Shown: positions 3,940 through 24,000 of the stretch, piece after piece
How the letters are laid out: each line of letters begins with the position of its first letter
Numbering within the stretch: the first letter of the stretch is position 1
Assembly (NCBI GenBank): GCA_050303535.1
Contig: JBNLBY010000002.1
Coordinates: forward strand, 63,534 to 87,533
Direction of reading: 5' to 3'
Length of the DNA stretch: 24,000 bases
From: Sideroxydans sp.
GTDB lineage: Bacteria > Pseudomonadota > Gammaproteobacteria > Burkholderiales > Gallionellaceae
Position numbers and translations under genes: made by a program
The notes under the pieces: model-generated
What the model was told of the DNA's origin: nothing
The model's input: only the letters and a program-made list of their open reading frames with translations
Databases searched by the model: none

Positions 3940-4365
3940 ATGACCTGGCAACTATACGATACGGAAATTCTCGGTAACCAATCGCAGGTTTTGCTCGACG
4001 ACAATTTTGTGGGGGATATCCCGGGCGATGAACTGCCCAACCTTGCCTGGATAGGCATATGGTGCCAGCAGAGCCCCGAAGGCCACTACTGGCATCCCGA
4101 GGAATCGGAAATGCTGGACCGGATCGAAAACGACCTGCTGGAACTCGTTTCACAATTCGCCCACGGCTGGGCGGTCTACACGCGACGTCTTGCAACGGTC
4201 GGACTGCGCGAATATTTCTTCTACTTCGGCGGCGATGCCGAACTGGAAAAAGTGGCGCCTGCATTGAAAGCGAAATACCCCGAGTATCGCATCGAGTCGG
4301 AAGCAAAACCCGATCCCAAGTGGGAGCTCTACCTGTCCTGGGTCAAGACCGCACCGCACGGATGA
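3940..4365 (+). CDS. DUF695-family protein
   Basis: 141 aa. W-x-Y..., PNLAWIGIWCQ, EESEMLDRIENDLLELV, RRLATVGLREYFFYFGGD fit the DUF695 pattern as I recall it (PxLxWVxV, E...L..IED.L, G.REFYFY). Confidence 0.5.
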   Translation: MTWQLYDTEILGNQSQVLLDDNFVGDIPGDELPNLAWIGIWCQQSPEGHYWHPEESEMLDRIENDLLELVSQFAHGWAVYTRRLATVGLREYFFYFGGDAELEKVAPALKAKYPEYRIESEAKPDPKWELYLSWVKTAPHG

Positions 4366-4382
4366 TCAACCGGGGCGCCAAG

Positions 4383-4581
4383 CAGGCTATTGAAAAATGT
4401 TGCGAGCGATGACAGAACAAGGCGCGCAATGGCGAGGTGGGTTAGGCAGGGATGGGCGGCTGATGTTGCTGCCCAACTCGCAAAAAGCGGAGTTTACAAG
4501 TAGTTTATCGCTTCGCGACCCCGCATTTTGAGCTATTAAGCAACGCAGTTATGTCGAGCGCAGTAGTTTTTCAACAGCCTG
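4383..4581. repeat. ~200-bp intergenic element bounded by 15-nt inverted repeats
   Basis: caggctattgaaaaa (4383-4397) against tttttcaacagcctg (4567-4581), 14/15 complementary. It lies in the 317-bp DUF695-cysK spacer. Confidence 0.55.
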
Positions 4582-13190: not shown

Positions 13191-13266
13191 GGGGCGTTAG
13201 CTCAGCTGGTAGAGCAGCGGACTCTTAATCCGTTTGTCGAGTGTTCGATCCACTCACGCCCCACCA
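13191..13266 (+). tRNA. tRNA-Lys (anticodon CUU)
   Basis: 76 nt. Acceptor ggggcgt/acgcccc, D-arm agctcagctggtagagc, anticodon stem gcgga/tccgt with loop ctCTTaa, T-arm gagtgttcgatccactc, encoded CCA end. Confidence 0.93.
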
Positions 13267-16476: not shown

Positions 16477-17109
16477 CTACAAATTGTCCGCCTGCGCGGC
16501 ATGTTCGCGCATGATCTTGAGCTGGAATAGCGTGTTGCGCTCTTCCTCCGACAGTACCGATTCGATGTAACGGATGGTGGACAGGTAACGCGGGATGACG
16601 TTGTACTTGAGCGAGTTGACGCGTTTCTGGGTTTTGCGCTGTTCGGTCAGCAGGCGCCACAGCGCGGTTTCCGCTTCGCCCAGTTGTGCCAGCAGCACAG
16701 CGATGTCGGTCATGCGGCTGCGCGCCTCGTCGAAACTGGCATCCGTCCACATCAGTCCGATCGGCAGCAGGGGAGAGCTTTCCACCGACACGCTGGGATA
16801 TTCGACACCGATGCTGCTGCGCGGCAGGATATGAACCGACAATGCCGGCTTGAGACCGATCACCGCCTGGCGCAGTTGCGTGCTGCCCATGCGCATATGC
16901 GTGATCGTGAGCCAGTAGTAGGCACCTTGCAGGGACTGGCTGACTGCCTGGCGCAATTCATGATATTTCTTCAGGCGCTGATGTACCAGACGCGTGAGCA
17001 GTTCGCGTTTGCGTTCCAGCAGATCATGTCCATGCTGCAACGACACCACCTGCCGCCGCAGCGAGAGCAGCGTGCTTTTGGTGGGGCGGACCTGCAATCG
17101 TTTCTTCAT
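16477..17109 (-). CDS. atpD: V/A-type ATP synthase subunit D (central stalk)
   Basis: RPTKSTLLSLRRQVVSLQHGHDLLERKRELL at the N-terminus and QRKTQKRVNSLKYNVIPRY...EEERNTLFQLK at the C-terminus are the conserved V-type D signatures. The start overlaps the atpB stop (ATGA). Confidence 0.9.
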   Translation of the reverse strand: MKKRLQVRPTKSTLLSLRRQVVSLQHGHDLLERKRELLTRLVHQRLKKYHELRQAVSQSLQGAYYWLTITHMRMGSTQLRQAVIGLKPALSVHILPRSSIGVEYPSVSVESSPLLPIGLMWTDASFDEARSRMTDIAVLLAQLGEAETALWRLLTEQRKTQKRVNSLKYNVIPRYLSTIRYIESVLSEEERNTLFQLKIMREHAAQADNL

Positions 17110-18503
17110 GTGTTTATTGCCGCTGCGCCCTGCCAGCGGTGGTATTTGCCCAGGTCGGCCTCGCTCACGCGGGTAAGCGTTTCGGGCGGCAACAGTGAGA
17201 GCAGATTCCAGGCAAGGTTAAGCGTTTCGATAATGCTGCGATCCTCGTTCTCATTCTGCGCCACGAATTGCTGCTCGAAAGCATCGGCGAAAACGAGATA
17301 ATTCTGGTCGCTCTCGAATAATTCATCCGCGCCGATGATCGACGCGAGGTTGCGCACTTCCAGCGCGCGCGCATAGGAAGCGTAAATCTGCCCGGCGACC
17401 CGGGCATGGTCTTCGCGCGTATGTTCCTTGCCGATACCGTCCTTCATCAGGCGCGACAGTGAAGGCGGAATATCTATCGGCGGATAAATGCCGAGACTGT
17501 TGAGACTGCGGCTCAGCACCACCTGTCCTTCGGTAATGTAGCCGGTCAGATCGGGAATGGGGTGAGTGATATCGTCGCTCGGCATACTGACCACCGGCAC
17601 CATCGTGATCGAACCGTGCCGTTCGCGAATGCGGCCTGCGCGTTCGTAGATTTCCGCCAGGTCGGAATACAGATAACCGGGATAACCCTTGCGCGCGGGG
17701 ACATCGCCCTTGGCCGTGGCAACTTCGCGCAATGCCTCGGCGTAGTGGGTCATATCCGTCATCACCACCAGCACATGCAGATCGAGATCGAAGGCGAGAT
17801 ATTCCGCCACGGTCAGCGCCGCGCGCGGCAGGATGAGCCGCTCGATGGCCGGATCGTCGGCGAGATTCAGGAACATCACCACATTGCGCAGCACGCCGCT
17901 GTCGGAAAAGGTTTCGCGGAAAAAATGCGCATCATTGAAAGAAATGCCCATTGCCGCAAACACCACGGCGAATTGCGACTCCTCACCCGGCAGGCGCGCC
18001 TGGCGCACGATCTGTGCGGCGAGACGATTATGCGGCAGGCCGGAGCCGGAAAAGATCGGCAACTTCTGTCCGCGCACCAGCGAGTTGAGACCGTCGATGG
18101 CGGAGATGCCGGTCTGGATGAACTCGCGCGGATAGGCACGTGCAGCCGGATTGACCGGCGCGCCGTTCACATTGCGCTTCAGCCGGGAGAACAGCGGCGG
18201 CCGGTCGTCGCGCGGCTGGCCGATACCGTTGAACACGCGACCCAGGATATCCGGGCTCAATGAAATTTCGAACGGCTGATCGAGGAAGCGCACCCAGGTG
18301 CGTTCCAGATCGAGATTGTCGGTACCCTCCAGCACCTGCACCAGCACCACCTCATCCGACGTGCGGATCACCTGGCCGTTGCGCCGCCGTCCGTTATGGT
18401 CGCGCACCACCACGCGCGCACCCAGCGCCACGCCGGGAACGCCACGCATGTAGAGCAGGCCGCCACGCACGGCCGACGCCAGTCTGTATTCCTTGTCACT
18501 CAT
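17106..18503 (-). CDS. atpB: V/A-type ATP synthase subunit B (non-catalytic)
   Basis: 465 aa. SGSGLPHNRLAAQI (degenerate P-loop), VVFAAMG, PARKGYPGYLYSDLAEIYERAGR, SITMVPVVSMPSDDITHPIPDLTGYITEGQ. AAGGAG RBS 6 nt before the ATG. Confidence 0.95.
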   Translation of the reverse strand: MSDKEYRLASAVRGGLLYMRGVPGVALGARVVVRDHNGRRRNGQVIRTSDEVVLVQVLEGTDNLDLERTWVRFLDQPFEISLSPDILGRVFNGIGQPRDDRPPLFSRLKRNVNGAPVNPAARAYPREFIQTGISAIDGLNSLVRGQKLPIFSGSGLPHNRLAAQIVRQARLPGEESQFAVVFAAMGISFNDAHFFRETFSDSGVLRNVVMFLNLADDPAIERLILPRAALTVAEYLAFDLDLHVLVVMTDMTHYAEALREVATAKGDVPARKGYPGYLYSDLAEIYERAGRIRERHGSITMVPVVSMPSDDITHPIPDLTGYITEGQVVLSRSLNSLGIYPPIDIPPSLSRLMKDGIGKEHTREDHARVAGQIYASYARALEVRNLASIIGADELFESDQNYLVFADAFEQQFVAQNENEDRSIIETLNLAWNLLSLLPPETLTRVSEADLGKYHRWQGAAAINT

Positions 18504-18524
18504 GGGCGCTCCTTTTGTTTTCTT

Positions 18525-18709
18525 GCCCTCTCCCTAACCCTCTCCCGCAAGCGGGAGAGGGGACTAGTGTGGAGGCATATCGAAAGCTTCTCCGCTCTTA
18601 CTCCCCTCGCCCTCCGGAATTGGAAATTGCTCTTCTCTTTTGCTCCCTCTCCCGCTTGCGGGAGAGGGTTGGGGAGAGGGCATCGGGTGAGGGGTGGGGG
18701 AGAGGGTAG
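18525..18709. repeat. REP-like composite repeat module, left flank of the DUF559 core
   Basis: A 37-nt unit gccctctccctaaccctctcccgcaagcgggagaggg (18525-18561; internal 11-bp-stem palindrome) and its inverted copy at 18645-18681 (36/37). The inverted copy is preceded by a 29-nt unit ggaattggaaattgctcttctcttttgct (18616-18644) and followed by the tail cgggtgagggg. Confidence 0.9.
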
Positions 18710-19350
18710 TAATCTGCGGAGAGGATAAGAGCAGCACGTATCTTCTCCAGCACTTCTTCTAATTGCTGCATGACTTCCATGTTCCAGAACCGCAACACCG
18801 TATATCCCTGGCTGCGCAACCATGCATCCCGCTGTCTATCGTAATTAGCCTGCTCGGCATGTTGCCCGCCGTCCAGTTCAATAATGAGAAATCGTTCCAT
18901 GCAGACAAAATCCACGATGTAGCTTCCCAATGGTTTTTGCCGTTTGAACTTCAGATTCATGAAGCGATGCGCGCGCAGGTGATACCACAGGCGTTGTTCT
19001 GCTTCGGTCTGATTGGTGCGGAGAGATTTTGCGTTGGTTAAGGTCTGCTTATTTTTCGGCCCTCTCCCTAACCCTCTGGGTGAAACAACTAGCCATTCGA
19101 CTAAGCTGGCAAACGACGCCAGCAAGTCGCTGGTTATCCCGCAAGCGGGAGAGGGGACTGGTGTGGAGGGTTTTCCACCAGAATTGGAAATTGCTTCTCC
19201 TATTTGCTCCCTCTCCCGCCGGAGTTGGAAATTGGTCTTCTCGTTTGCTCCCTCTCCCGCTTGCGGGAGAGGGTTGGGGAGAGGGCCCCGGGAGAGGGTT
19301 GGGGAGAGGGCCCCGGGTGAGGGGATTTGTGCGATTCGTTCGCGATTCAT
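18598..19350 (-). CDS. DUF559 (Vsr/PD-(D/E)XK-like) endonuclease-domain ORF reading through flanking repeats
   Basis: The core (~18712-19040) AKSLRTNQTEAEQRLWYHLRAHRFMNLKFKRQKPLGSYIVDFVCMERFLIIELDGGQHAEQANYDRQRDAWLRSQGYTVLRFWNMEV is the canonical DUF559 pattern. The only in-frame ATG is at 19350 and overlaps the atpA stop (ATGA). The N- and C-terminal ~100 and ~40 aa are translated repeats (PLPNPLPQAGEGA, SPTLSRKRERE). True boundaries are uncertain; an internal TTG near 19116 is possible. Confidence 0.7.
   Translation of the reverse strand: MNRERIAQIPSPGALSPTLSRGPLPNPLPQAGEGANEKTNFQLRREREQIGEAISNSGGKPSTPVPSPACGITSDLLASFASLVEWLVVSPRGLGRGPKNKQTLTNAKSLRTNQTEAEQRLWYHLRAHRFMNLKFKRQKPLGSYIVDFVCMERFLIIELDGGQHAEQANYDRQRDAWLRSQGYTVLRFWNMEVMQQLEEVLEKIRAALILSADYYPLPHPSPDALSPTLSRKREREQKRRAISNSGGRGE
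19059..19323. repeat. REP-like composite repeat module, right flank of the DUF559 core (expanded copy)
   Basis: Same order and orientation as the left module. The 37-nt unit is split by 60 nt (19059-19077 and 19138-19155). There are two 29-nt units (19180-19208, 19221-19249), a half unit (19209-19220), a full inverted 37-nt unit (19250-19286), a partial unit (19291-19311), and the same tail cgggtgagggg (19313-19323). Confidence 0.9.
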
Positions 19351-21128
19351 TCTGCTTCCTTCCCATGTTGCGCATACTCGTTTGCCACGCGCGCAAATTC
19401 GTCGCGGACTTGCGTGGAAAACGCCTGCATCTCATTCAGCTGGTCGTTTGCATAGCTGCTTTTCAGACGCATGGCATTGGCGAGCAGCGGCAGGCGCAGC
19501 AATTCCTGCACCGGCACGCCTTTATCAAGTAAACCCAGCCCCTGCTGGTAGATGGACAGCATCAGGTCCAGCAGCGCGAATTGTTTTTGCGGCGAACAAT
19601 ATGTATCCACCGGATCGAGCGCGCTCTGTTGCAACACACCCTGCTTGAACAGCGCCACACCTTCCAGCGCCCAGCGCTGCTGCGGTGACAGTGCTTCAGG
19701 CCCGACCAGGTTGACGATGCGCGTGAGTTCGTCGGCTTGCGACAGGATGCCGAGCGCAGTGGCGCGATGCGTTTTCCAGCGCGGGTCGACGTTTTCCGCC
19801 CACCATCCGCTGCAACTGGTGATATAGCCGGAGAAACTTTCCACCCAGTCCACGGCAGGATAATGCCGGGCATCGGCCAGTTCCTTGGACAGTCCCCAGA
19901 AGGTCTGCACGATCTCCTTGGTGTGGCTGGTCACCGGTTCGGAAAAATCGCCGCCGGGCGGCGACACTGCGCCGATCAGCGTGATCGAGCCGCTGTCGTC
20001 CGAGAGCGTCGTGACGCGTCCCGCGCGCTCGTAAAACGCGGCAAGCCGCGAAGCAAGATAAGCCGGATAGCCTTCTTCCACCGGCATCTGTCCCAGGCGT
20101 CCTGCGACTTCGCGCAACGCCTCGGCCCAGCGGCTGGTGGAGTCGGCGAGCATCACCACATCGTAACCCTGGTCGCGGTAATACTCGGCCAGCGTGACGC
20201 CGACATAGATCGATGCTTCGCGCGCGACCACCGGCATGTTGGAAGTGTTCGCTACCAGCAGCGTGCGTTCCATGAGCGAACGCCCGGTGTTGGGGTCGAC
20301 GAGTTGCGGAAACGTTTCGAGAATGTCCACCAGTTCATTGCCGCGTTCACCGCAACCGACATAGATCACAATGTCCGCATCGGACCAGCGCGCGATCTGG
20401 TGTTGCACGATGGTCTTGCCCGCACCGAACGGGCCGGGGACGGCAGCGCGTCCGCCTTTCACCAGCGGGAAAAATGTATCGAGCACGCGCTGCCCGGTCA
20501 GCAGAGGCGCAACGGAATTGTCGCGTTTGCGGAACGGGCGCGGCATGCGCACCGGCCAGCGATGAAACAGTTTGAGCTCATGTTTTTTGCCGCTGGCATC
20601 TTTTGTGCGCGCCACCACTTCATCCACAGTGGCATCCCGGGCGGCTGATATTTCCAGCAATTCGCCGCCCATGCCGGGGGGCACCATGATGCGGTGGGTG
20701 ATGCTCTCTGTTTCCTGCACGGTTCCCAGCACAGAGCCATCCTCGACATATGCGCCGCTTTTCAGTTCGGGCAACGGCTCGAAGCGCCACACCTTGCTGC
20801 GATCCAGCGGATCGAGGTTGATGCCGCGCGGAATGAAATCGCCTTGTTGTTTTGCATATTCCAGCAGCGGACGCTGCACGCCGTCGAAAATTCCGCCCAG
20901 CAAACCGGGGCCGAGTTCCACCGACAGCGGATGCCCCAGTGCTTCCACCGGTTCTCCGGGATGCAGCAATTCGGTGGGCTCATACGTCTGCACCAGCGCG
21001 AATTCGCCGTGACGTTCGATGACCTCGCCCATCAGCTTGAGGCTGCCTATCCTGACCTGCTCGCCGGTCGTGACGTCGGGCAGTTTGACGGTGACCAGCG
21101 GTCCGTTGATTTCAACGATTTCAGACAC
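19347..21128 (-). CDS. atpA: V/A-type ATP synthase subunit A (catalytic)
   Basis: 593 aa. GPFGAGKTIVQHQIARWSDADIVIYVGCGERGNE (P-loop and GER motif), PVEEGYPAYLASRLAAFYERAGR, SITLIGAVSPPGGDFSEPVT. Normal length, so no intein. Confidence 0.95.
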   Translation of the reverse strand: MSEIVEINGPLVTVKLPDVTTGEQVRIGSLKLMGEVIERHGEFALVQTYEPTELLHPGEPVEALGHPLSVELGPGLLGGIFDGVQRPLLEYAKQQGDFIPRGINLDPLDRSKVWRFEPLPELKSGAYVEDGSVLGTVQETESITHRIMVPPGMGGELLEISAARDATVDEVVARTKDASGKKHELKLFHRWPVRMPRPFRKRDNSVAPLLTGQRVLDTFFPLVKGGRAAVPGPFGAGKTIVQHQIARWSDADIVIYVGCGERGNELVDILETFPQLVDPNTGRSLMERTLLVANTSNMPVVAREASIYVGVTLAEYYRDQGYDVVMLADSTSRWAEALREVAGRLGQMPVEEGYPAYLASRLAAFYERAGRVTTLSDDSGSITLIGAVSPPGGDFSEPVTSHTKEIVQTFWGLSKELADARHYPAVDWVESFSGYITSCSGWWAENVDPRWKTHRATALGILSQADELTRIVNLVGPEALSPQQRWALEGVALFKQGVLQQSALDPVDTYCSPQKQFALLDLMLSIYQQGLGLLDKGVPVQELLRLPLLANAMRLKSSYANDQLNEMQAFSTQVRDEFARVANEYAQHGKEAE

Positions 21129-21759
21129 TGCGCACCTCGCTGTCCGGAATTAAAAAGTCAGCGATTGCACGCTGCAAGGCTTCGCTCAATCTCTCCGTGC
21201 GTCCTTCGAATGTATTGTCGAATCGTATGTTGCCGTCCTTGCTGCTGATCAATACGCCGCCGATGGTGTTGATCGTCTGATCGGAAAGTTCCATCTGTTT
21301 GCCGGGCGCGGCCTTGCGTGCAAGACGCTTCCAGTCCGGACGCAGACGTTCCAGGTCGCGCGCATTGACCTGGACGACGAGTTCGTCGCGTTCGATGCTT
21401 TGCGCGCCTTCGCCCAGCCAGTCCAGCAACAGGGGCAGATAGTGCGATTCATCTTTTGCCAGTTCGGTCAGCCGTTTGGGTAATTCGGAGATAACGTCAT
21501 TGATCAGGCTCCAGCGCGTGCGGTCGAGTTCCGAACGCAGGTTGAGTTCGGCCGCCTGGATGCGTTGCTGGTAGGCACGCTCGCCGTAAGCCTTGGACGC
21601 GAGCGTCTCGCGTTCCTCTTCGCTGTGCAGGCGTTGCCTGGCATCCGCCAGCATTTGCTCGCGGGACTTGTGCGCGTCGGCGAGATATTCGTCGGCAAGT
21701 TTCTGCGCGCGTGCGAGCAGCGCGGATTCCAGACCGGCGACCTGATCGCTGTCACTCAT
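21121..21759 (-). CDS. atpE: V/A-type ATP synthase subunit E (peripheral stalk)
   Basis: 212 aa. Long charged N-terminal helix (AQKLADEYLADAHKSREQMLADARQRL...), C-terminal globular part ...IGGVLISSKDGNIRFDNTFEGRTERL. The position and overlaps (8 nt with atpA, 4 nt with atpF) fit. Confidence 0.8.
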   Translation of the reverse strand: MSDSDQVAGLESALLARAQKLADEYLADAHKSREQMLADARQRLHSEEERETLASKAYGERAYQQRIQAAELNLRSELDRTRWSLINDVISELPKRLTELAKDESHYLPLLLDWLGEGAQSIERDELVVQVNARDLERLRPDWKRLARKAAPGKQMELSDQTINTIGGVLISSKDGNIRFDNTFEGRTERLSEALQRAIADFLIPDSEVRSV

Positions 21760-22109
21760 TCCTGCACCTCCATTGCATTGGGGCCCAACAGGCTTTGCAC
21801 CAGCTCTTCCACGCGCGAATGGTACACGGCGGACTGATGGATTTCCGGAATCTCGGTGATGATGATGCGTCCGCCTTCCTTTTGCGCGAGCACCAGATAG
21901 CGGCCGGGGTTCTGCGCCAGCCGCTGTTCGATCACGACCAGCGCGGCCTGCTGCCGGTGCAGCAATTCCTCGAACAGTTTTTCGGACTCTTCCGGAGTGG
22001 GATCGGAAAATGTCTCGAAACCGATCAGCGCGAATCCTTCCATCAGCGCGGCGCTGCCCAGCGCGATCAGGCGCGCCGGTGTGCCGACAGATGGTAGTTG
22101 ATCATTCAC
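21756..22109 (-). CDS. atpF: V/A-type ATP synthase subunit F
   Basis: 117 aa. RLIALGSAALMEGFALIGFETF...ALVVIEQRLA...IITEIP matches the small alpha/beta F-subunit pattern. ATGA overlaps on both sides. Confidence 0.75.
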   Translation of the reverse strand: MNDQLPSVGTPARLIALGSAALMEGFALIGFETFSDPTPEESEKLFEELLHRQQAALVVIEQRLAQNPGRYLVLAQKEGGRIIITEIPEIHQSAVYHSRVEELVQSLLGPNAMEVQE

Positions 22110-22552
22110 GCAATTTTTCCCAGCAACAGGATGGTGACCACCAGACCGTAAATCGCGATCCCTTCGGCGAGTCCCAGATAGATCAGCGTGCGGCCGAACA
22201 TTTCCGGTTTTTCGGAAATGATCGCAAGCGACGCCGCGCCCACCGGCCCCACGGCCAGACCCGCGCCGAATGCGGCCAGTCCGGTCGGCAGGCCTGCGCC
22301 GAGCAGCGCCAGACCCAGCCCGGTGGAGATTTCAACATGCTGGGTGACGACCTCCTGGGCCAGCGCATCCTGCATGCCCAGCATCAGCACGCCAAGGCTG
22401 GCGCCGACGAACACCAGCAGGTTGACGGCCAGCGAACTTTTCAACCAGCGCCGCGCACGCACGCCGTCTGCCATGGGACGAAACCCCAGATAAGTACCCA
22501 GCCCGATAGTGCCGAGCACATTCAAACCGATTAATGCCATGAGCCAGTACAT
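22106..22552 (-). CDS. atpK: V/A-type ATP synthase subunit K (proteolipid c-ring subunit), 4-TM form
   Basis: 148 aa. Gly-rich helix GLGLALLGAGLPTGLAAFGAGLAVGPVGAAS, loop SEKPEMFGR, and the ion-binding helix LGLAEGIAIYGLVVTILLL with one conserved Glu. The N-terminal hairpin has no carboxylate. AAAGGA RBS. Confidence 0.85.
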   Translation of the reverse strand: MYWLMALIGLNVLGTIGLGTYLGFRPMADGVRARRWLKSSLAVNLLVFVGASLGVLMLGMQDALAQEVVTQHVEISTGLGLALLGAGLPTGLAAFGAGLAVGPVGAASLAIISEKPEMFGRTLIYLGLAEGIAIYGLVVTILLLGKIA

Positions 22553-22773: not shown

Positions 22774-24000
22774 TCATTTCTGCAAAGCCAGTTTCTGTTT
22801 GGCGCCCAGCGAGAGCGGACGGAACGGCCGTCCGTCCGCCTCGAAGAAACGCGAAAAGCCTTCATAGTATTCCAGCCGCAATGCCTGGATGGCAACAATG
22901 GCGCCTTCCAGCACGAGAATGAAAATATTGCCCAGCACCACCGTCACCCAGTATCCCGTGCTGTGCAGCATGTTTGCCACGGTGAAAATGGCGACCGCCA
23001 GCGCCACGTGATTCAGGCTGAATGCCGCCAGCCGCAAAAAGGACAACGTATTGGACGTGTACGCCATGGCGGTTTCCAGTCCTTCCATCAGCACCATCAG
23101 CAATCTTTCGCCGTAAGCGCTGCCGCTGTATTTGCGCCAGGTATGGCCGAAGATCGCGGCGAGTGCCGTGCACATCATCAGCGGCGCAACGATGCCGATA
23201 TGGCCGCTGGCGTACAAACGCCACGCGCCCAGCAGCAACCCCAGGTAGAGCAACAGGCCAGCAGCGCCGCGGCTGTCCAGCAATGCCTCATGCGTGCGGC
23301 CATCGGCCAGCCGGTTGCGTATGGTCAGCAAATTGGCCAGCACAATAAAAGAACAGCCCCATCCCAGTGCGATGCTGAGCATGCGCGACGGGTCGGACAA
23401 GGGCGACATCCACCATGCGGGAATGACATGCTCGTAGCCGAACACGCTGCCGTACAACAAACCGAACACGCACGAACAGGTTCCCGCCGCCAGCACCAGC
23501 GAAGTGTAGTGGCCGAGACGCTTGTGAAATAGCACACCCGCGAGCGCGATGACCGCGCCCTGGCCGACATCGCCGAACATCATGCCGAACATCAGCACGA
23601 AGGTGACGGCAAACAGGATGGTGGGATCGATTTCCCCGTAGCGCGGTACGCCGTAATTCAGCACCAGGCTGGAGAACGGTTTCATCCAGCGGACATGACT
23701 GATCAGCGACGGCACCAGCATGCGCTCGTCCGGACGCGGATCGCGCGCGCTCAACACATAACGGCCGGGAAGATTTTTTTCCAGGAGGCGCTGCAAATGC
23801 TTCAGCCCGTATACGGGAATCCAGCCGCTGACGGTGACGAGGTGGCCGCGCCCGCGCATCATCAGCGCCAGTTCGGCACAGGGTGCGGCGCGCGCCAGCA
23901 TACGCGAGGCATCGGTCAAGCGCGCAACGAAATCCGGCTGGGCTACCTGTTCGCGGCGCTGCCCGTCTTCCTTCGCGCGCAACTCATTCAGGCGCGCCAT
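22774..24000 (-). CDS. atpI: V/A-type ATP synthase subunit I (a-subunit, stator/proton channel), 5' end off the right edge
   Basis: 408 aa visible. GEIDPTILFAVTFVLMFGMMFGDVGQG, SFLRLAAFSLNHVAL (the conserved channel Arg helix), LEGAIVAIQALRLEYYEGFSRFF. Full-length subunit I is about 600+ aa, so the ATG at the window edge is probably internal. Confidence 0.9.
   Translation of the reverse strand: MARLNELRAKEDGQRREQVAQPDFVARLTDASRMLARAAPCAELALMMRGRGHLVTVSGWIPVYGLKHLQRLLEKNLPGRYVLSARDPRPDERMLVPSLISHVRWMKPFSSLVLNYGVPRYGEIDPTILFAVTFVLMFGMMFGDVGQGAVIALAGVLFHKRLGHYTSLVLAAGTCSCVFGLLYGSVFGYEHVIPAWWMSPLSDPSRMLSIALGWGCSFIVLANLLTIRNRLADGRTHEALLDSRGAAGLLLYLGLLLGAWRLYASGHIGIVAPLMMCTALAAIFGHTWRKYSGSAYGERLLMVLMEGLETAMAYTSNTLSFLRLAAFSLNHVALAVAIFTVANMLHSTGYWVTVVLGNIFILVLEGAIVAIQALRLEYYEGFSRFFEADGRPFRPLSLGAKQKLALQK

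Follow-up and report, generated by a model that had tools for sequence, protein, structure and literature searches.

We describe a cassette, built around a gene for a DUF559-domain nuclease, that has been inserted between atpA and atpB of a V-type ATPase operon in Sideroxydans sp. (Gallionellaceae; GenBank assembly GCA_050303535.1, contig JBNLBY010000002.1, positions 63,534 to 87,533). The stretch analysed, here called the window, is 24,000 nt long, and coordinates given below without a locus name are positions in it. The boundaries of the insert are fixed by comparison with an empty site, and its nuclease gene is bracketed by copies of a 37-nt unit that matches the BoxC repeat of Escherichia coli, also known as PIT (potential intrastrand triplex) and TMECO. 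The architecture is general: nearly every YcjD-type DUF559 gene that we examined is bracketed by such units with a fixed polarity, the genes are scattered over non-syntenic contexts, and the repeat blocks co-vary with the nuclease clade, so that the link between nuclease and repeats suspected in the initial annotation of this DNA extends well beyond it. We judge it somewhat probable that the whole package is a mobile cassette in a nuclease-repeat partnership, comparable to that of RAYT (REP-associated tyrosine transposase) enzymes with REP (repetitive extragenic palindromic) repeats and REPINs; the enzymology of the partnership, taken alone, we hold with less confidence. The units and the domain family are both known, and the cassette and the proposed partnership appear undescribed. 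The initial annotation had known of no formal description of such a system, and in the literature we too found no published link between DUF559 or ycjD and the units, although coverage was thin for subscription-journal papers and a prior mention is possible.

The A-B spacer is an insertion. In the minus-strand V-type ATPase operon, which by Pfam encodes subunits I, K, F, E, A, B and D, adjacent genes overlap by 4 nt (K/F, F/E and B/D) or 8 nt (E/A), except that atpA (19347-21128; 593 aa, with the Pfam ATP-synt_ab, Xtn and VA_C domains) and atpB (17106-18503; 465 aa) stand 843 bp apart (18504-19346), a departure from tight packing that had already been singled out. The affinity of the atpB protein is to Gallionellaceae-type Betaproteobacteria such as Sideroxydans and Ferrigenium, with orthologs at 87-98% identity. 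Among eight further orthologous operons retrieved, six are empty at this junction, with atpA and atpB overlapping in an ATGA (L254, Sideroxydans lithotrophicus ES-1, Ferrigenium kumadai, L261, L262/L263 and L264/L265), and L255 is occupied; in the overall tally seven of nine orthologous operons keep the ATGA overlap and share no A-B spacer, which bears out the earlier claim of an insertion. Locus L254 has an atpB of 98% protein identity and is 94.5% identical in DNA to the window over atpB plus atpD, and the C-terminus of the window's atpA aligns with its ortholog there. Its empty site reads ...ggaaacggaATGAgcgacaagg, where the window reads ...gcagaATGA[insert]...ggagcgcccATGAgtgacaagg, so that the inserted cassette spans 18504-19350, a length of 847 bp with one of the two ATGA copies counted in. 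In the window, as in L255, an ATGA bounds the insert on either side: in the window the left copy (19347-19350) holds the TGA stop of atpA and the ATG of a 250-aa open reading frame (ORF), and the right copy (18500-18503) holds the atpB start. Because the insertion duplicated the ATGA, the atpA stop and the atpB start were both kept intact. The insert also supplies an AAGGAG Shine-Dalgarno sequence for atpB (18510-18515, minus strand, 6 nt upstream of the ATG) that is absent at the empty sites, where the ATGA couples the two genes. On the operon strand within the insert neither an intrinsic terminator nor a sigma-70 promoter was predicted; since no terminator stands in the way, the operon probably still works.

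A second cassette occupies the same junction in L255 (Nitrosomonadales metagenome-assembled genome GCA_016716325.1). Its DUF559 core is 79% identical to that of the window, no closer than copies from unrelated contexts; its downstream spacer is homologous to the window's and its upstream half is a different tandem array, in which four tandem units of ~60 nt (cccctcgcccgcctgcgggagatgcgcccatgaccgtcacttcccttcgggtcgcttgct; L255 3930-4290) precede DUF559, a module that the window does not have. Third-position identities between the window and L255 (56% for DUF559, 63% for atpB) do not separate vertical inheritance from independent origin, and tree topology was therefore used instead. The neighbour-joining tree of atpB plus atpD pairs the window with the empty L254 and places L255 among empty Ferrigenium- and Sideroxydans-type operons. 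As L255 thus groups with empty operons and not with the window, the parsimonious reading of the tree is two independent gains at one 4-nt site, the alternative being many base-perfect losses; one atpA/atpB junction would then have been hit twice. The V-ATPase A gene is a classic target of intein homing endonucleases, which had been thought to make the location suggestive; the insert is intergenic and lies outside atpA, and the link is a coincidence of gene name.

The spacer ORF carries the nuclease core that the initial annotation had recognised by eye. PF04480 (DUF559, a Vsr-fold PD-(D/E)XK nuclease domain) matches ORF residues 103-208 (18727-19044, minus strand) over model positions 3-108 of 109 with 148.5 bits against a gathering threshold of 20.6 (E = 7.8e-44), and the closest solved structure is PDB 3HRL, an 'endonuclease-like protein' of Neisseria gonorrhoeae (E = 3.4e-33, aligned over 93 residues). 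At every column conserved at ≥90% among 119 homologs the window domain has the consensus residue; the roles of its individual catalytic residues are ones that we infer. With the YcjD equivalog model NF007294 the score is 116.8 bits, below the cut-off of 218, and the protein is a relative within the YcjD family, not an equivalog. The ORF has profile matches to DUF559 and MTES_1575 only, in keeping with the earlier remark that the enzyme is no RAYT. No transposase family was found among the 17 other window ORFs scanned with Pfam, nor a methyltransferase among all 18, the neighbours of the cassette being atpA and atpB. A marginal PADLOC match to a DpdF fragment was set aside as reflecting the shared nuclease fold.

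On its sequence, the 37-nt unit is the known BoxC/PIT/TMECO intrastrand-triplex motif, and not the REP/BIME (bacterial interspersed mosaic element) type of repeat for which it had first been taken. It reads CCCTCTCCC-YAA-CCCTCTCCC-GCAAGC-GGGAGAGGG, a hairpin (10-bp stem when folded) joined to a third block with mirror symmetry, and the TMECO consensus CCCTCNCCC N3-6 GGGNGAGGG N3 GGGNGAGGG is matched exactly at 18526-18561, 18645-18680 and 19250-19285. BoxC of E. coli goes back to Bachellier et al. in the 1990s and was renamed PIT by Hoyne and Maher (2000) and TMECO by Holder et al. (2015) (PMC4666352). The motif is 37 nt long with loops of type A (TTA) or type B (CCG), and 3,610 copies were counted over 262 proteobacterial genomes, 23 of them in E. 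coli K-12, often as inverted pairs, and none in Salmonella (PMC4666352). E. coli units form an intrastrand triplex in vitro that went undetected in vivo; Hoyne and Maher and Holder et al. detected neither promoter nor terminator activity of the units nor any role in mobility, and the latter saw no mobility genes near them (PMC4666352). Genomic instability has been reported at TMECO loci. In the window the blocks, as read from the letters, have the mirror symmetry that a triplex requires.

A scan in which a single genome stood for each species located the exact 37-mer at no fewer than 119 loci (hosts include Cupriavidus, Pseudomonas, Bradyrhizobium, Polyangia, Rhodanobacter, Comamonas, Sulfuricella, Ferrigenium and Nitrosomonadales metagenome-assembled genomes), and the hairpin alone occurs in 72 viral-contig stretches. 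Within this collection (L073-L191), the 37-mer in Cupriavidus and in Pseudomonas citronellolis/delhiensis ends larger, genus-specific repeats with conserved extra flanks, for example ...cacttcgtcgagactccg|GCCC... in Cupriavidus and ...caagagc|GCCC...GGGggctgtcctgagcgg in Pseudomonas; judging by these flanks, the unit appears to be a module reused by several repeat families. Rfam has no family for it, the only above-threshold match in the window being a tRNA, and sub-threshold matches of microRNA type in the spacer were rejected as reflecting long hairpins only.

The association of gene and repeat was followed in a metagenome scan that gave 62 loci encoding DUF559 relatives, down to ~42% identity. 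At almost all loci, blocks matched with at most one mismatch reach ~10-28 per kb within 250 nt of the gene on both sides, against typically 0-2 per kb in the remainder of these loci. Exact three-block units, counted with loop lengths relaxed relative to the strict E. coli TMECO consensus, reach 2.47 per kb at ≤200 nt from the gene and 0.035 per kb beyond (~70-fold enrichment). The strict consensus gave few matches at the metagenomic loci, 10 upstream and 6 downstream, since a second loop of 5 nt is common among the units. Of 54 loci, 42 have a G-form block as their nearest one upstream and a C-form block as their nearest one downstream; upstream blocks lie at a median of 36 nt before residue 12 of the 120-aa query core, downstream ones at a median of 19 nt past residue 113.

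The canonical cassette has a 5' part CCCTCTCCC-GCTTGC-GGGAGAGGG-nnn-GGGAGAGGG, then 4-20 nt, then the gene from ATG through DUF559 to the stop, then a 3' part CCCTCTCCC-nnn-CCCTCTCCC-GCAAGC-GGGAGAGGG, whose C-form unit overlaps or follows the stop codon. The last upstream GGGAGAGGG block doubles as the Shine-Dalgarno sequence of DUF559, and where an extra G-form unit lies 3' of the gene it is placed as Shine-Dalgarno sequence for the next host gene, as at ubiD in L194/L195. The initial annotation had mentioned repeat-encoded peptides rich in Pro, Gly, Glu and Arg at the start of DUF559 annotations. They were found, and at both ends: homologs very often begin ...SPLPLAGEGQGRG or PSPACGRGLGRG and often end ...LSPNPSPASGRGE, which are translations of the units, in proteins from Nitrosomonadales, Gallionella, Thiobacillus, Hydrogenophilales and others. 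Neighbouring genes show a weak orientation bias relative to DUF559 (24:10 upstream, 22:13 downstream, by a crude ORF method). Downstream of DUF559 in L192 (~4380-4500), an internally deleted remnant of the gene lies between two units; such remnants, here and in E. coli (below), consist of 5' and/or 3' ends of the gene alone and are what one would predict if doublets without a gene had arisen from complete cassettes.

Copies of DUF559 with 75-80% core identity lie in unrelated contexts, and the cassette travels as a composite: in the window an additional BoxC doublet stands on either flank of the core, and this composite, including a split unit described below, recurs between imuB and dnaE2 in L259/L260. 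The blocks differ with the nuclease. The main DUF559 clade has CCCTCTCCC/GGGAGAGGG units, an 11-locus clade together with L231 is flanked only by CCCTCCCCC/GGGGGAGGG units, and two outliers have CCCCTCCCC-type units. Most loci of the GGGGGAGGG-type clade have a GC-rich hairpin as second loop and GGGTGGGG as third block; in L237-L245, L248 and L251 the order is CCCTCCCCC-loop-GGGGGAGGG, GC-rich hairpin (e.g., GGCCGCCGAAGGCGGCC), GGGTGGGG, mirrored downstream.

In the window, the flanking module that the initial annotation had seen, with 37-nt units in both orientations, was recovered as a 96-nt direct repeat (91% identical) on either side of the gene, at 18604-18699 and 19209-19304, with inverted 38-nt arms (97% complementary) at 18524-18561 and 18645-18682, three copies of a spacer unit of 41-45 nt, and CGGGTGAGGGG tails. 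All six strand-matches of the 24-nt hairpin fall in the spacer (0.00 expected, 100 shuffles), and the rest of the window has only three isolated matches to the 9-mer block, one of them exact, at 489. Read along the operon strand, the atpA stop is followed by the tail CCCCTCACCCG with a partial, 23-nt tandem copy of the unit (19289-19324, the copy at 19289-19311), a C-form BoxC/TMECO unit, GCCCTCTCCCCAACCCTCTCCCGCAAGCGGGAGAGGG, that forms the outer arm of the upstream module (19250-19286), and two tandem spacer units of 41-45 nt (19175-19260), the '29-nt unit' of the initial annotation. Next comes the G-form unit directly upstream of DUF559, which is split, a detail missed before: its first half, CCCTCTCCCGCTTGCGGGA (19137-19155), is parted from its second, AGAGGGTTAGGGAGAGGGCC (19058-19077), by a 59-nt hairpin insert (19078-19136; fold z = -3.65) inside the GGGA|GAGGG block. 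The last block of the second half is the one that is the DUF559 Shine-Dalgarno sequence in relatives. After DUF559 come degenerate blocks and a tail and then a C-form unit (18645-18681, within 18645-18706), in a position conserved across loci; an 83-nt spacer (18562-18644) homologous to the one that follows DUF559 in L255 and encoded also in the C-termini of P0004, P0013 and P0027; a G-form unit of type A, with TTA loop (18525-18561); and the AAGGAG and atpB start. The two units of this downstream doublet pair in a 37-bp stem, and its RNA fold has -106.5 kcal/mol (z = -5.9).

Hairpin mini-elements of 55-60 nt (TAACCAGCGACTTG...CTTAGTCGAATGGCTAGT...) like the one at 19078-19136 are found in different BoxC units, always inside the GGGA|GAGGG block (L130 ~4160-4209, L199 ~726-751, L259 ~700-760). 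In the window and in L259 the unit that the mini-element interrupts is the one immediately before DUF559. Rfam contains no match to the mini-element, which may be a second, smaller repeat parasite or a regulatory add-on.

The start of the window's nuclease deviates from that of its relatives. The 250-aa ORF, catalogued in NCBI as P0001 (18598-19350, minus strand), runs from the ATG overlapping the atpA stop through the repeats and DUF559, and this ATG (19348-19350) is its sole in-frame one. Relatives have GGGAGAGGG-tgaaa-ATG where the window has GGGAGAGGG-ccgaaa-AAT, and the AAT at 19051-19053 (window GGGAGAGGGccgaaaAATaag against L195 GGGAGAGGGtgaaaATGagc) may mark a start codon lost from a domain that is intact in other respects. 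Translation of the nuclease may therefore be coupled to that of atpA and yield a 250-aa product, or may begin at a TTG, or may not occur at all. The called DUF559 ORF of L255 ends on the ATGA of the atpB start (L255 5001-5004), and that of the window starts on the ATGA of the atpA end; the repeat-encoded extensions in both keep an open frame that ties the nuclease to the translational coupling of the operon. Stop-poor repeats could yield both effects by chance.

The E. coli K-12 member of the family, ycjD, lies between sapF and fabI and ends ...tcaCCCTCTCCCtga; beyond it come a remnant in which its 3' end is duplicated and, after that, a complete TMECO unit (locus L258, where the remnant lies between BoxC units at ~4300-4370 on the minus strand). 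The Enterobacter asburiae homolog lies elsewhere, after a HemN-like radical-SAM gene that we take to be yggW/hemW; the loop of a type B unit contains its stop codon, and immediately after that unit comes one of type A. Three independent short-read assemblies (L269, L270 and L271) end 5 nt past the Enterobacter DUF559 stop codon, as expected where a multi-copy repeat starts. In the fraction of matches that were named, YcjD homologs come from Escherichia, Shigella, Enterobacter, Kluyvera, Klebsiella, Lelliottia and others, and none from Salmonella. TMECO is present in Escherichia, Shigella and Enterobacter and in no Salmonella (PMC4666352), and the fit of the two distributions weakly supports the partnership. 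Use of the E. coli pangenome as a test of empty and filled ycjD sites was abandoned as confounded by differing DNA upstream of fabI: about 2,080 of 5,426 complete genomes match, at their best place, only the fabI end of the sapF-ycjD-fabI region, and in E. coli O157:H7 (L266) an RND efflux operon and a TetR regulator lie directly upstream of fabI.

The known systems that the cassette resembles each share part of its features. With BoxC/PIT/TMECO, the window units share the 37-nt architecture, the consensus, the TTA (type A) loop, the inverted pairs and a wide proteobacterial spread; in the literature those are orphan repeats with no gene or mobility, whereas the window units bracket a nuclease gene in an insertion-like arrangement. 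With REP, BIME and REPIN-RAYT systems, the cassette has in common short palindromic extragenic repeats, single or in inverted doublets, an enzyme gene in single copy that has inverted repeat copies on its flanks and is far exceeded in number by the repeats, and an enzyme clade that co-varies with repeat sequence. The resemblance is functional only: RAYTs are IS200/IS605-like HUH/Y1 enzymes, whereas the window enzyme has a PD-(D/E)XK Vsr-type fold and no Y1 was found among the window ORFs scanned; the units have three blocks (a hairpin and a mirror-repeat third strand) and no GTAG-type head; and REPs are species-specific, whereas the BoxC unit sequence is common to several phyla. E. coli YcjD (b1289) and 3HRL (COG2852) have the same domain, and ycjD also ends in a BoxC-like block, but ycjD has no upstream BoxC unit and the window domain is embedded in a longer, repeat-encoded ORF. 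Neisseria Correia elements and ERIC/IRU are MITE-like (miniature inverted-repeat transposable elements), enter operons and supply expression signals. The doublets of the window are similar, as modules of ~160 nt with terminal inverted repeats of 37-38 nt and long mRNA stems that are tolerated between co-transcribed genes and, in this case, supply a Shine-Dalgarno sequence; they differ in being linked to a nuclease gene and not to a DDE transposase family. Vsr and the EDxHD homing endonuclease I-Bth0305I belong to the same PD-(D/E)XK structural clade as DUF559 (PMC3424549). Unlike theirs, the window gene has no adjacent cytosine methyltransferase and lies outside any intron or intein, although Vsr-type partners can be unlinked to the methyltransferase (PMC12907096).

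The reading that we favour is the following. The core of the cassette is a YcjD-type DUF559 gene between two inverted three-block units; the cassette landed on the ATGA of the atpA stop and atpB start, duplicating the four bases, with its own Shine-Dalgarno sequence for atpB taking the place of translational coupling. The nuclease would recognise the hairpin- or triplex-prone units that flank its gene and nick or cut at them, which would promote copying of the cassette by break repair or by a transposition-like reaction; gene-less units and doublets would be copied in trans as non-autonomous passengers. Its clade includes the strand-specific nicking enzyme Vsr as well as the homing endonuclease I-Bth0305I (PMC3424549). 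The wider proposal that YcjD-type DUF559 proteins are the trans-acting enzymes that create and spread the proteobacterial BoxC/PIT/TMECO repeats is tentative, and we lean against it.

Several observations weigh against partnership and mobility. The co-variation of nuclease clade and blocks could simply track host taxonomy. The initial annotation had supposed a self-contained module, but among the matches listed none of 119 exact-unit loci (chunks of up to 8 kb) has DUF559 in the same chunk, and only 3 of the 72 viral-contig hairpin loci have it, in all three within ~110 nt of a unit. E. coli K-12 has one ycjD for its 23 units, and some E. coli strains have as few as one TMECO (PMC4666352). The ATGA duplication is what selection for intact atpA and atpB would demand in any case, and is thus weak evidence of mechanism; the simple single-unit loci L197, L204, L209 and L210 have no recognisable target duplication. 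The canonical ATG is missing from the window copy, which may be inactive. Lastly, a Caulobacter DUF559-domain protein behaves as a methylation-linked Vsr repair enzyme and causes DNA damage when the cognate methylation is missing (PMC12907096).

Three other explanations have to be set against the partnership. A free-standing DUF559 endonuclease of homing type might target a BoxC doublet or junction and be copied by repair with the 37-nt units as homology arms, the units arising and spreading by an unrelated process and the nuclease parasitising them. This would account for a gene that is always found between two inverted units, for units that far outnumber genes and usually have none nearby, and for presence/absence polymorphism at a conserved site (filled in the window, empty in L254 at 94.5% nucleotide identity), and the clade does hold a proven homing endonuclease (PMC3424549). 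Yet the empty atpA/atpB sites hold no BoxC unit that could be the target, so that in this case, if in no other, the units came with the insertion; homing would not be expected to leave a 4-nt duplication; and the whole composite, outer doublets included, recurs at imuB/dnaE2. We consider homing unlikely. The association could also be passive, DUF559 being a host Vsr-like T:G mismatch repair nuclease that partners a cytosine methyltransferase, with units accumulating in permissive intergenic space or co-opted as ribosome-binding site and mRNA stabiliser, and an unknown transposase or host process moving everything. The JGI annotation of relatives as very-short-patch-repair endonucleases agrees with this, as do the DUF559 domain of Caulobacter VsrA, which is functionally tied to the ScmA methylase (PMC12907096), the service of the upstream unit as Shine-Dalgarno sequence, and the failure of Hoyne and Maher and of Holder et al. 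to see a promoter, terminator or mobility function.

Such passivity makes it hard to explain the polarity and spacing in 42 of 54 loci, the ~70-fold enrichment and the clade/block co-variation, and it sits poorly with a gene that travels with its flanks into operon junctions and is polymorphic between near-conspecific genomes; nor is a methyltransferase adjacent, or present among the 18 window ORFs scanned. We rate it as improbable, if anything a little more so than homing. Least credible is that the operon originally had the DUF559-bearing A-B spacer and that the tight ATGA overlap of relatives came later. L255 has DUF559 at the same junction and a homologous downstream spacer, as this would predict, but the sister locus L254 and six loci (five operons) that bracket L255 are empty with the exact ATGA overlap, many independent base-perfect deletions would be needed, and the upstream halves of the two inserts are unrelated; judged by the tree, an ancestral spacer is effectively excluded.

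The other genes of the operon, all on the minus strand and assigned by Pfam, are those for subunits I (22774-24000+), K (22106-22552), F (21756-22109), E (21121-21759) and D (16477-17109). A tRNA gene at 13191-13263 (Rfam RF00005, 68.9 bits), between queG-like and PAS/EAL genes, is unrelated to the cassette.

BoxC/PIT/TMECO repeats have been catalogued in E. coli since the 1990s with no assigned function, origin or mobilising activity, and DUF559/YcjD is a very large, mostly uncharacterised family with one member in E. coli K-12. Gene and repeat are linked systematically, with a polarity and with co-variation, and this joins the two in a hypothesis, action of YcjD on BoxC, that can be tested cheaply in E. 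coli K-12. If true, it would add a new enzyme class to the repeat-plus-enzyme paradigm, as a second nuclease-repeat selfish system beside RAYT-REP; it would make YcjD an enzyme of Vsr fold and PD-(D/E)XK type able to recognise a hairpin or triplex in DNA, and would offer a mechanism for instability at triplex-motif (TMECO) loci. The case also illustrates how an essential operon with translational coupling can accommodate a cassette of this kind, through duplication of the ATGA overlap and a donated ribosome-binding site.

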